A stretch of 64,000 nt of DNA, taken from NCBI GenBank assembly GCA_965209055.1, contig OZ242374.1, positions 4,544,001 to 4,608,000 of the forward strand, read 5' to 3'. This document shows, piece by piece, positions 5,956 through 9,361 of this stretch (position 1 is the first letter of the stretch; every line of letters begins with the position of its first letter). The position numbers and the translations under genes were made by a program. Under the pieces are notes generated by a model. It saw nothing but the letters and a program-made list of their open reading frames with translations, searched no databases and was not told the origin of the DNA. The DNA is from Acidobacteriota bacterium (GTDB lineage: Bacteria; Acidobacteriota; UBA6911; RPQK01; JAJDTT01).

Positions 5956-6378
5956 ATGAGTCTTCTCCATCTTATGGACATCTTCTTCCTCCTCTTCCAC
6001 TCCCTCTGGATCCTCCTGGTGATCCTGGGTTGGATCTGGTCCCGGACCCGCCGCCTGTGCCTGGCGGCGCTGGCGCTGACCACGATTTCGTGGTTCGGAT
6101 TCGGCTACTGGCGGGGGTGGGGCTACTGCATCTGCACCGACTGGCACTGGCAGGTGCGGCGGTCGCTGGGTGACCTCAACCTGCCCCACAACTACATCGG
6201 CTTTCTGATCAGGGAAGGGACCGGTCTGGAGGTCCCGGATCCGGTTCTGGAACCGGTCATCCTGGGCGCCTTCCTGGCGTCCGTAGCCGGGGGCGTTGGT
6301 CTCAGCCTGCGGGACCGCTCCCTGAAAGCCGGCACCGAAGACGGCGACAAGAACGTCGCCGCTTGTCTGTTTAAATAA
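5956..6378 (+). CDS. DUF2784-like membrane protein
   Basis: FH..W..L..LGW and GWGYCICTDWHW.VR..LG motifs; GGAAGG RBS. Confidence 0.7.
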   Translation: MSLLHLMDIFFLLFHSLWILLVILGWIWSRTRRLCLAALALTTISWFGFGYWRGWGYCICTDWHWQVRRSLGDLNLPHNYIGFLIREGTGLEVPDPVLEPVILGAFLASVAGGVGLSLRDRSLKAGTEDGDKNVAACLFK

Positions 6379-6382
6379 GTCT

Positions 6383-6410
6383 GCCCGGGCCGCTCATGAG
6401 CGGCCCGGGC
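6383..6410. repeat. Perfect 28-bp palindrome (terminator or REP-like)
   Basis: GCCCGGGCCGCTCATGAGCGGCCCGGGC is its own reverse complement and begins 4 nt after the stop at 6378. Confidence 0.75.
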
Positions 6411-6473
6411 GGCGGTGGCTGGACCGTGTCGCCGCTGACCGTTAGATCCGGATGTGGAGTAAGGTCGGCCACC

Positions 6474-6545
6474 GTCTTTCCCGATGTCCTGAATGGATAC
6501 GAGGGCATCAAGGCCCGAATGACAAGCACAGGAGACCGGAAAGAT
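6474..6545 (+). ncRNA. Putative bridge/seek RNA donor-binding loop in the IS110 left end
   Basis: Nested stems GTCTTTCC/GGAAAGAT, TCCTG/CAGGA and GGGC/GCCC enclose an internal loop. The loop holds ATGGATAC (identical to right end 7795-7802) and ACAAG (reverse complement of junction CTTGT). Confidence 0.6.
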
Positions 6546-7491
6546 GAAACAGCATACCGTAGGCATCGACATCTCGAAAGCGCACCTGGACGCCCACCGG
6601 CTGGCCGACGGCCGATCCGCCCGGTTCGACAATGACCCGGCCGGCTTCCGGGCGCTGATCGATTGGATCGGAACTCCGGTCGAGTGCGTCGCCTACGAGG
6701 CCACCGGCCCCTATCACCGGAACCTCGAGGAAGCGCTGTGGAAAGCGAAGCTGCCGCTGTCGAGAGTGAATCCCTGGCAGGCCCGGTGTTTTGCTCAGGC
6801 GACCGGGAGCCGCGCGAAGACCGACACCGTAGACGCCCGGATGCTGGCCCAGATGGGGGCCAGCCTGGATCCGCGCCGGACCCCGGCGCCGTCCAAGACG
6901 CAACGCCGGCTCCAGGAACTGCAGGGGTGCCGGGACGCGCTGATGCGCCAGCGCACGGCCGCGCTGAACCGCCGCGCCCATTTGCGCGATCCCCTGCCCA
7001 AGCGGCAGAACCAGACCCAGATCAACCTGTTCGAGCGCCAGGCGAAGGCCATTGACCGAAAAATGCAGCAACTGATCGCGGCCGATCCGGAGCGGGCGCG
7101 CAAGTTGGAGATCCTGACCTCCATTCCCGGGATCGCGGCCACCACCGCCGCGGGTCTACTGGCCGAGATGCCGGAGCTGGGCACCCTGAGCGGTAAGGCC
7201 GTCGCCAGTCTGGCCGGGTTGGCCGCCGTTCCTCGCGAGTCGGGGGCTTGGCAGGGACGGGCCTTCATCCGGGGCGGACGAGCGCGGGCGCGACGGCTCC
7301 TGTACATGCCGGCGGTGGCCGCCCTGCGCTGGAACCGCGACCTGGCCGAGGTCTATGGGAGACTGACCGGGCGTGGCAAGCCCGGCAAGGTGGCCCTGGT
7401 CGCCGTCATGCGCAAGCTCATCGTCCTAGCCAACACCCTGGTGAGTCAGGACCGCACCTGGTTGCCCGAAGCGCCCCGTGTGGTCTGCTGA
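6544..7491 (+). CDS. IS110 family transposase/recombinase
   Basis: GIDISK, YEATG, KTDTVDA (DEDD), SIPGIA, RESG catalytic Ser, GK..KVALVAVMRKL. Confidence 0.95.
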   Translation: MKQHTVGIDISKAHLDAHRLADGRSARFDNDPAGFRALIDWIGTPVECVAYEATGPYHRNLEEALWKAKLPLSRVNPWQARCFAQATGSRAKTDTVDARMLAQMGASLDPRRTPAPSKTQRRLQELQGCRDALMRQRTAALNRRAHLRDPLPKRQNQTQINLFERQAKAIDRKMQQLIAADPERARKLEILTSIPGIAATTAAGLLAEMPELGTLSGKAVASLAGLAAVPRESGAWQGRAFIRGGRARARRLLYMPAVAALRWNRDLAEVYGRLTGRGKPGKVALVAVMRKLIVLANTLVSQDRTWLPEAPRVVC

Positions 7492-7605
7492 AGCGACGGA
7501 GCGAGATGAGGAGGAAAGGGGGCGTGACGGGTCCCCCGAGGAATGATCTGTAGAACTTCCGGTCAGGCCTGGCCGGAAGCTTGCTTACGGCCTTGAAAGC
7601 TCTTC

Positions 7606-7755
7606 ACGCCCTGGGGAGCGTCGGGTCACCCGAAGGGCCGCAGCGAAGCGGAGGAGCCGTAGGCTTGACCCGAGGCTCCCCAGGGCGTACCCGCGCCCAG
7701 TGGACCGGACAGATCACGTGCCAACAGGAAACCGGACACCTCACTGACTAACGAC
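7606..7755. repeat. Long hairpin plus tandem CCGGACA-x-TCAC boxes resembling a transposon end or MITE remnant inside the IS110 3' region
   Basis: ~23-bp stem ACGCCCTGGGGAGCgTCGGGTCA...TGACCCGAgGCTCCCCAGGGCGT (7606-7688); CCGGACAGATCAC (7705) and CCGGACACCTCAC (7732). Confidence 0.5.
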
Positions 7756-7837
7756 CCGGGATGGAATCACCGATGAGAACCCACCCCTTGCAACATGGAT
7801 ACTCCCGAGTCCCCCACCGGAGAGCAGGAGGACCTCC

Positions 7838-9361
7838 ATGAATAGTCCGGGCGGCGGACTCGCAGCCGTGGACTGGGCGATCATCGTCCTCTACGCGCTG
7901 GGCACGGTCGCCTTGGGATATTTCTACGGGCGCCGTCAGAACAGCCTCAAGGAGTATTTCACCGGCGGCGGACGCATGAATTCCATCGTGGTGGGGTTCT
8001 CCATCTTCGCCACCGGCCTGAGCACCATCTCCTACCTGGCGGTCCCCGGCGAGGCCATCGGCAAGGGTCCGGGCGCCATGTTCAACAACTTCATGGTCTA
8101 TCCCATCCTCTACCTGGTCATCGGCTACGTCTTCCTGCCCCTCTACATGCGCCGGCGCGTCACCAGTGCCTACGAATACCTGGAAGAGACCCTGGGTTTG
8201 CGGATCCGGCTCCTGGGAGCCGTCATATTCATCTTTTCGCGTCTGATCTGGATGTCACTTCTCGTCTACCTGTCCGCCCGGGCCATGGTCGTCATGCTGG
8301 GCGTGGACGAATCGTGGGTGCCCGTCGTTATTCTGGTCACGGGATTCGTCGCCGTGCTCTACACGTCGGTGGGGGGGCTGAGAACCGTCGTCATTACGGA
8401 CACCCTCCAACTGACCCTCATGCTGGGGGGAGCCTGGCTCGTGATCGGGATCGTGACCTACCAACTGGGGGGCGTCACCTGGGTCCCAACCTCCTGGCAG
8501 CCTCATTGGGACCACCAGCCGTGGTTCAGCCTCGACCCGGCAGTCCGGGTCACCGTCTTCGGATCGGTGATTTACGTCGCCCTCGAGGGCATCTGTGGAG
8601 CCGCCTCCGACCAGACCCATGTCCAGAGATACATGGCCACGGGGAGCCTGAAGGCCGCCCGGCGCTCCATGATCGCCAATATTCTTGCGGGCCTCGCCGT
8701 CGTCCTCACTCTCTGGATCACCGGGCTCGCCCTTCTGGGGTACGTGCAGCAGGCGGCTCAGACGCTTCCTTCCCACATCAACGTCGGTCAGGGGGCCGAC
8801 AGTGTCTTTCCCTATTTCATTGCCTACGTGCTGCCTCCCGGCATCTCGGGTCTCGTGGTGTCGGCGATGTTCGCCGCCGGCATGTCCAGCGTCGACTCGG
8901 GCGTGAACTCCATTACCGCCGTGGTCAGCCGCGATTTCCTGCACCGTTTCGGGAGATTGCCGGCCAGCCGGCGCGCCCGGACCCGCCTGGCCAAGATCAT
9001 TGCGTTCTCCGTCGGGACGATCGTGGTGGTGGTCGGCTCCCTCATAGACAACGTGCCGGGAAACATCTGGGCGGTCGGCCAGAAGACGTCCGGGTTGCTC
9101 TCGACTCCCCTGTTCGGTCTCTTTTGTTTCGCCTTTTTCGTCCGCTTCGCGACCACTCTGGGAGTGGTCTTCGGCACCGTGACCGGCATCACGACGGCGG
9201 TCCTGGTGGCCTACTCCGGACCGATCTTCGGATTCGACCCGGAAACCGGATACGACCCGGTGAGTTTCATCTGGATCGGGCCATTCGCCTTGGCGGCGAA
9301 TCTGCTCGTGGGAATCCTGGTGAGCACCCTTCACCGGAAGCTCCGCCGGTCTGACGGTTGA
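7838..9361 (+). CDS. Sodium:solute symporter (SSS) family transporter
   Basis: EYFTGGG, STISYLAVPGE, SAYEYLE, YTSVGGLRTVVITD, DQ..VQRY, FAAGMSSVDSGVNS; many TM helices; GGAGG RBS. Confidence 0.92.
   Translation: MNSPGGGLAAVDWAIIVLYALGTVALGYFYGRRQNSLKEYFTGGGRMNSIVVGFSIFATGLSTISYLAVPGEAIGKGPGAMFNNFMVYPILYLVIGYVFLPLYMRRRVTSAYEYLEETLGLRIRLLGAVIFIFSRLIWMSLLVYLSARAMVVMLGVDESWVPVVILVTGFVAVLYTSVGGLRTVVITDTLQLTLMLGGAWLVIGIVTYQLGGVTWVPTSWQPHWDHQPWFSLDPAVRVTVFGSVIYVALEGICGAASDQTHVQRYMATGSLKAARRSMIANILAGLAVVLTLWITGLALLGYVQQAAQTLPSHINVGQGADSVFPYFIAYVLPPGISGLVVSAMFAAGMSSVDSGVNSITAVVSRDFLHRFGRLPASRRARTRLAKIIAFSVGTIVVVVGSLIDNVPGNIWAVGQKTSGLLSTPLFGLFCFAFFVRFATTLGVVFGTVTGITTAVLVAYSGPIFGFDPETGYDPVSFIWIGPFALAANLLVGILVSTLHRKLRRSDG

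Follow-up and report, generated by a model that had tools for sequence, protein, structure and literature searches.

IS621 carries in its left end a 177-nt RNA that comprises a 5' stem-loop plus two internal loops, of which the first is variable and the second conserved (PMC11208160). As described there, its left target guide spans 9 nt and its right target guide 4 nt, longer in some orthologues, each including the CT core (PMC11208160). Handshake guides have been described for the same element (PMC11208158), and its junction promoter is composed of a -35 box in the right end and a -10 box in the left end (PMC11208160; PMC13626964). Elements of the IS1111 group, for which seekRNAs have been reported (PMC11187229), place their RNA downstream of the gene, in the right end, according to PMC11208160. 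In the account given in PMC8450116, the structured 5'-UTR of ISPpu9 from Pseudomonas putida hides the ribosome-binding site (RBS) and lowers translation.

The 64,000-nt stretch of DNA analyzed here (the window) contains what is very probably an insertion sequence of the IS110 group, similar to IS621, that measures 1438 bp not counting its CT core, occupies a REP element, and is equipped with an ordinary two-loop bridge RNA (Table 1). There is little doubt that it belongs to the known IS621-type bridge RNA system, an assignment supported by its boundaries, the fold of its RNA, guide-DNA matches with covariation, and intact catalytic residues. Like IS621 as described (PMC11208160), it combines a left-end RNA, in which a 5' stem-loop is followed by a target loop and then a donor loop, with a CT core, a 9-nt left target guide, a minimal 4-nt right target guide, and a REP target. 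Handshake positions after each core-binding AG (PMC11208158), a candidate -35 in the right end with a candidate -10 in the left end, and a DEDD+Ser recombinase are further likenesses. Unlike IS621, to which its protein is only distantly homologous, it has other guide sequences and another REP target, a 310-nt right end with a variable hairpin, many relatives whose right target guides extend to 6 to 9 nt, and uncultured Acidobacteriota-like or Gemmatimonadota-like hosts. With the IS1111 group and its seekRNAs (PMC11187229) it shares the recombinase family and, presumably, an RNA-guided choice of target and donor; in contrast to that group, the RNA of the window element is encoded upstream of the gene, in the left end, as in the IS110 group, and its right end carries no guides. 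ISPpu9, as presented in PMC8450116, is likewise an IS110-family element in REPs with a long structured 5'-UTR that includes the RBS, and it too has extra sequence downstream of the transposase gene, which in ISPpu9 encodes an RNA (Ssr9).

Table 1. Coordinates of the features of the element (window positions unless C1 or a locus is named)
Feature	Position	Strand	Remarks
Left half of REP target	6343..6363	+	hairpin GGCGACAAGAACGTCGCC 6343-6360; left target GTCGCCG 6355-6361; core CT 6362-6363
True non-coding left end	6364..6543	+	starts TGTCTG (right donor); three copies versus intact REPs
Candidate -10 hexamer TTAAAT	6371..6376	+	putative; preceded by TGT at 6368-6370 (extended -10)
5' stem-loop of bridge RNA	6383..6410	+	12-bp perfect stem; predicted fold
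Target-binding loop domain	6411..6476	+	outer stem 6411-6425 with 6463-6476; inner stem-loop 6439-6451
Left target guide GUCGCCGCU	6428..6436	+	identical to left target + core (6355-6363)
Right target guide GGAG and handshake UA	6456..6461	+	guide 6456-6459, reverse complement of CT + CC; handshake 6460-6461
Donor-binding loop domain	6475..6545	+	basal stem, middle stem UCCUG/CAGGA, apical stem-loop 6503-6516; helices 4-6
Left donor guide AUGGAUAC	6493..6500	+	identical to right-end terminus + first core base
Right donor guide GACAAG and handshake CA	6521..6528	+	guide is reverse complement of CT + TGTC; handshake 6527-6528
Shine-Dalgarno AGGAG	6530..6534	+	inside 3' strand of donor-loop middle stem
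IS110-family DEDD + Ser recombinase, 315 aa	6544..7491	+	Pfam PF01548, PF02371
Non-coding right end, 310 nt	7492..7801	+	imperfect long hairpin ~7598-7695, indel among close relatives
Candidate -35 hexamer TTGCAA of junction promoter	7788..7793	+	putative
Left donor ATGGATA, core CT, right target CC	7795..7805	+	7795-7801, 7802-7803, and 7804-7805, respectively
Nested IS5-like insertion in third copy	C1 ~1171727-1172915 (locus L004 ~312-1500)		equivalent to window 6442-6445

The recombinase matched PF01548, the DEDD RuvC-like domain (E 8.5e-22), and PF02371, the C-terminal domain with the conserved Ser (E 7.8e-19), the pair of domains that characterizes IS110-family proteins. Homologs in the PDB were IS621 (8wt6; E 2.6e-36) and ISCro4 (9t56; E 1.8e-37), and the IS110-family assignment proposed in an earlier note, made from the sequence of the window alone, was thereby confirmed. 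A HMMER match of 128 bits to the IS621 chain, covering query residues 3-297, indicates distant homology. Residues D9, E52, D94, D97, and S233 were invariant in an alignment of 24 homologs (A1), and binding of the bridge RNA by the recombinase would be expected by analogy with IS621. The same genome encodes a second, distant IS110-family recombinase with 43% identity (C1:2084638-2085542), the match to which falls into two pieces, apparently in different frames.

Element boundaries were determined by comparing three copies in the same genome with intact REPs. All copies were common from the REP hairpin (from 6343) to ...ATGGATACTCCC, and the hairpin that precedes each of them, GGCGACA.GAA.GTCGCC, is that of a REP. 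Searching for this hairpin pattern with up to three mismatches returned 174 matches genome-wide, the majority continuing GCTCC. Because intact REPs read GTCGCC-GCTCC, the CT core can be placed at both junctions: The three occupied sites read GTCGCCG-CT and then TGTCTGTTTAAAT, and at the other end of the element ATGGATA-CT is followed by CC. The element therefore spans 6364-7801, with the core at 6362-63 and 7802-03, and the insertion site of the window copy comprises 11 nt within the REP (GTCGCCG + CT + CC), of which GTCGCCGCT at 6355-6363 is the left target plus core. No terminal inverted repeats were present, insertion was site specific, and a short core was repeated at both junctions, as in other members of the family. 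The CT / TGTCTG left junction recurred in most related loci. Sequence 6383-6445 was confined to the three copies genome-wide, as expected of element rather than target sequence. The earlier note had assumed a left end of about 90 nt beginning at 6453; the true start lies 89 nt further upstream, giving a non-coding left end of 180 nt that begins TGTCTG.

The three copies all occupy GTCGCCG-CT-CC REP sites, and the 62 intact 11-nt target sites found in the genome (versus 12.5 expected) are all unoccupied. REPs of this family are abundant, reading GGCGACAGGAAAGTCGCC and then GCTCC, and often form tandem arrays with variants, for example of the GGCGGTAGGAAAACCGCC type; the left target guides of close relatives in other metagenome-assembled genomes (MAGs) match those other variants. 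A diverged fragment at C1:1111403-1111595 looks like the recombinase gene's 3' end together with the terminus of the right end (...TTGCAAC ATGGATACT CCC); no full gene corresponds to it, and it is probably what is left of a related element.

The window copy and a copy at C1:218 kb shared 100% DNA identity over 1432 aligned bases, with identical proteins and right ends. The third copy (C1 ~1170365-1172981) encodes a 99.4% identical protein with two amino-acid changes, and its right end is 99.0% identical. It is interrupted by a nested IS5-like insertion of ~1.19 kb, with a DDE_Tnp_1 + DUF772 transposase, inverted repeats, and a TTAG duplication, that sits in the inner loop of the target-binding domain and splits that bridge RNA. 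A left boundary at 6442, derived from this copy, was rejected, the break being the edge of the nested insertion, upstream of which the same sequence as in the other two copies resumes. Taken by itself, the interrupted and mutated third copy would fit an element that has decayed to a relic, with neither RNA nor recombinase still working. We consider this very unlikely, as the window and C1:218 kb copies, identical to one another, retain the DEDD+Ser residues and an intact RNA, and identical copies at different REP sites argue for recent movement.

We are highly confident that a canonical bridge RNA, ~160 to 165 nt long (roughly 6383-6545) and composed of a 5' stem-loop, a target loop, and a donor loop, is encoded in the left end. 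Using ViennaRNA, the 171 nt at 6380-6550 adopted a three-domain fold with an energy of -85.8 kcal/mol (z = -5.3), and none of 200 shuffles folded as well. The 93 nt at 6453-6545, the portion to which the earlier note had restricted the RNA, are unremarkable in stability when folded alone (z = -1.17; 21 of 200 shuffles equally good). The stems and motifs listed in that note nevertheless all exist, including ACAAG at 6522-6526, AGGAG at 6530-6534, and the ATG at 6544, and ViennaRNA returned the same fold for them. In this fold, the basal stem pairs GTCTTTCC (6474-6481) with GGAAAGAT (6538-6545), the middle stem TCCTG (6487-6491) with CAGGA (6529-6533), and the apical stem GGGC (6503-6506) with GCCC (6513-6516). 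We also scanned 6200-8000 against Rfam 15 (E up to 10), in which no family reached its gathering score. Matches below that threshold were at chance level; most resembled miRNAs and most fell on the right-end hairpin, and no bridge RNA family was among them, so the scan supplied no independent curated model.

The additional sequence changes the reading of the element's targeting. Extending the left end by 6364-6452 adds the 5' stem-loop and a target loop whose guides match the REP, and the target loop previously thought to be missing was an artifact of the left boundary having been misplaced by 89 nt. Its left guide forms the 5' strand of the first internal loop and GGAG the 3' strand. The left guide matched the flank at 9 of 9 positions in all three copies, and the right guide matched at 4 of 4 positions at all three insertion sites. 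Were the right guide extended to GUGGAG, it would favor CTCCAC; the occupied sites read CTCCCG or CTCCCA, leaving 4 nt paired. By this arrangement, the left guide (9 nt) would read the bottom strand of the REP left target plus core, and the right guide (4 nt) would read the core plus CC.

The part of the fold at 6475-6545 is, as had been proposed, the donor-binding loop, with left and right donor guides arranged around a CT core. ATGGATAC at 6493-6500 is indeed identical to the right-end terminus at 7795-7802, and with one further site in the window this makes three matches versus 0.61 expected. Facing the second core base, the left donor guide has G rather than U as its ninth position, which is variable across the family. 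ACAAG was rightly taken as the right donor guide, and the left end TGTGG against which it had been matched was not the true one: With the start corrected to TGTC, the match grows from 5 to 6 nt (GACAAG, 6521-6526). The donor guides of the window element thus match by 8 nt on the left and 6 nt on the right around the same CT core, and the donor loop would read the joined right-end and left-end termini. Corresponding changes were seen in relatives, in which ACGGATAC pairs up with an ACGGATA / CT terminus (L090, L094, L095, and L096), GATAAG accompanies a left end starting TATC (L025), and AACAAG accompanies a left end starting TGTT (L056, L084, L086, and the six-copy L032 family).

Handshake positions were likewise in place. 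In IS621-type systems, each core-binding AG is followed by a base that pairs with the non-cognate DNA at position 7, and the same relation was found here. In the window, the target-loop UA complements donor positions 6-7 (TA), and the donor-loop C at 6527 complements G at target position 7. All 46 sequences had U directly after the target-loop AG, facing donor A7, which is invariant; all 46 likewise had C after the donor-loop AG, with G at target position 7 in 44 of 46 distinct flanks.

We scrutinized relatives of the element for both structure and guides. A protein search retrieved 2505 homologs of the recombinase, and scanning representative genomes yielded 80 loci with 51 to 88% identity, mostly in MAGs labelled as Acidobacteriota, Vicinamibacterales, and Longimicrobiales. 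Across 46 aligned left ends (A2), the donor loop was nearly invariant and both strands of the first loop were hypervariable between conserved stems. RNAalifold recovered the first loop's outer stem and the second loop's inner stems; of its 22 pairs, 10 showed compensatory changes. A covariance model of the three-domain structure, with 168 positions and 44 pairs, scored the window at 146 bits, had three matches in its own genome, and placed the RNA upstream of the gene in related loci (62 matches from 60 sources). In the model-fitted alignment, which is biased toward the model by construction, 91.6% of cells were paired versus 34 to 49% in slid controls, 28 of 44 pairs changed on both sides, and none of 500 shuffles reached the observed values; the RNAalifold result is free of that bias. 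Among individual helices of the relatives, all 12 pairs of helix 1 (the 5' stem-loop) changed on both sides, and helix 2 (the target-loop outer stem) had 98.7% of cells paired and five pairs changed on both sides.

Guides were then scored as exact runs within an anchor-free window, comparing an element's own flanks with the flanks of other elements. The set comprised 82 loci (the 80 fetched, the window, and one further copy from the same genome), of which 77 could be parsed; L027, L063, L066, L072, and L093 were disrupted or offset. The parsed set held 47 distinct first loops, with 34 left and 41 right flanks usable. Mean run length was 6.03 against own left flanks versus 3.15 against those of others, and 5.44 versus 2.64 for right flanks, and in neither case did any of 10000 permutations reach the observed value. 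Most loci showed the typical junctions, with the left target followed by CT-TGTCTG and ATGGATA-CT by the right target. Examples include CGCCGGAG against CTCCGGCG in L032, GCACGAG against CTCGTGC in L041, TGGCTGCT and CTACCAG in L067, and TTCTCTGGC and CTCTAG in L090. Eight of 34 left flanks gave poor runs (2 or fewer). Judged by eye, a G-U wobble or a one-base offset explains some of these (L025, L036, L039, L041, L045, and L096), and those in L059 and L082 look like insertions into poor sites. Both loops track the flanks and ends of their own elements across relatives, in line with the covariation between loops and junctions that the earlier note had put forward as a check. Recombinases 86 to 88% identical to that of the window (L017-L024) came with left target guides of other sequence, matched to other REP variants, a well-resolved case of natural guide reprogramming, and such variation between sequences is consistent with programmable guides. 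The clade, drawn from uncultured Acidobacteriota-like and Gemmatimonadota-like bacteria and including long right target guides, enlarges the pool of bridge recombinase orthologs.

These data bear directly on the alternative that the RNA is a single-loop molecule (6453-6545) with donor guides only, and that targeting is supplied by the right end, by a trans RNA, or by a mechanism without a guide. Had it held, a bridge RNA lacking a target loop would have meant that targeting works by a new mechanism; the boundary error closes that route. In favor of the idea, the right end of the window element is unusually long for the IS110 group and strongly structured, and IS1111-group relatives are described in PMC11208160 as encoding their RNA in the right end. 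We give it almost no credence, even though the right end exceeds the left end (310 versus 180 nt), the reverse of the usual IS110-group pattern as given in PMC11208160. The element begins at 6364 rather than 6453, and the loop at 6411-6476 has guides that match the target and covary with flanks across the family. A left end that is longer and contains a target loop was the very observation that the earlier note had named as fatal to its proposal. Nor does the right end offer a substitute: On neither strand did its interior have a stretch of 8 nt or more in common with target or donor, and the energy of the left-end/right-end duplex (-145.7) was unremarkable, ~1.7 sd from the mean of shuffles (-133.4; sd 7.3; minimum -158.5). 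With no common 8-mers and pairing within the range of shuffles, a split guide RNA in the right end finds no support. In addition, the same RNA occurs in L026 and L090, the right ends of which are only ~15 to 20 nt, and the long right-end hairpin (~7598-7695) is missing in L017 and L024.

The right end was conserved only among the closest relatives (~86 to 92% identity over aligned blocks), and elsewhere in the family right ends ranged from ~15 nt to >700 nt. Lengths of ~600 to 730 nt were found in L028-L031, L036, and L039 (Vicinamibacterales) and in the L057 family. The left end of the L032 family is 301 nt, and both non-coding ends of the clade expand and contract considerably. A 66-nt piece 86% similar to the right-end hairpin lies at C1:2368165-2368230, possibly a small mobile palindromic module. 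Ssr9, downstream of the ISPpu9 transposase gene (PMC8450116), is a possible analogy for the right end, and by that analogy the variable structured right end could add a second RNA layer. Compared with ISPpu9 and its small RNAs Asr9 and Ssr9 as reported there, the right and left ends of the window element have no notable complementarity.

Candidate promoter hexamers are found at the two ends of the element. Across the junction of a circular form, TTGCAA and TTAAAT would be spaced by 17 nt, so this candidate promoter appears to be complete only once the right end joins the left end. [quoted passage not shown] From work on IS621, excision to a circle would join the right-end -35 to the left-end -10, the junction promoter would then drive transcription of the bridge RNA, and RNA-guided insertion into GTCGCCG-CT-CC sites would follow.

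RNA libraries of two studies yielded contigs over parts of the left end, and one 60-nt contig is identical to 6471-6530. Some match along the conserved stems but differ within the guide loops, the pattern expected of relatives whose guides differ. Such contigs, which show no strand, ends, or level and may contain DNA, are a weak hint of a left-end RNA. Summed depth over 6478-6534 exceeded that over the gene, and some bins had no cover; neither is usable to rank expression, and 6478-6534, being also the family's most conserved part, collects reads of relatives. No circle junction or empty-site joint occurred among the RNA-library contigs, an absence that carries no weight.

The donor-binding domain overlaps the translation signals of the recombinase gene. 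As the earlier note had recognized, AGGAG is buried in the stem, and the basal stem extends into the start of the ATG; helices 4 and 5, which bring this about, are conserved with compensatory changes. From this overlap, the whole left-end structure might be regarded as mainly a translational control leader that sequesters the RBS as in ISPpu9, where the 5'-UTR folds over the RBS and weakening the structure raises translation (PMC8450116), the guide matches then being incidental. This is extremely unlikely, since it leaves unexplained why both loop strands track their own flanks and ends, and why the handshake positions are present. Leader and guide roles are not exclusive, and on the bridge RNA reading the donor-binding domain could double as a leader of the recombinase mRNA, with RNA folding or cis binding of recombinase shutting translation off. 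We think this possible but rather doubtful; the donor-loop stems belong to a functional RNA, and RBS occlusion may be a by-product. If true, an autoregulatory switch would set whether a transcript serves as guide RNA or as mRNA, and the overlap of RBS and donor loop poses a simple testable question about the balance of the two. A literature search, which covered titles only and is no proof of absence, gave no paper with translational control by bridge RNAs in its title.

Neighboring the element are an ORF for a DUF2784 membrane protein (5956-6378) and a sodium:solute symporter gene (7838-9361). The mechanically derived frame of the DUF2784 ORF crosses the REP and terminates inside the element; without the insertion, it would reach a stop overlapping the symporter start codon.
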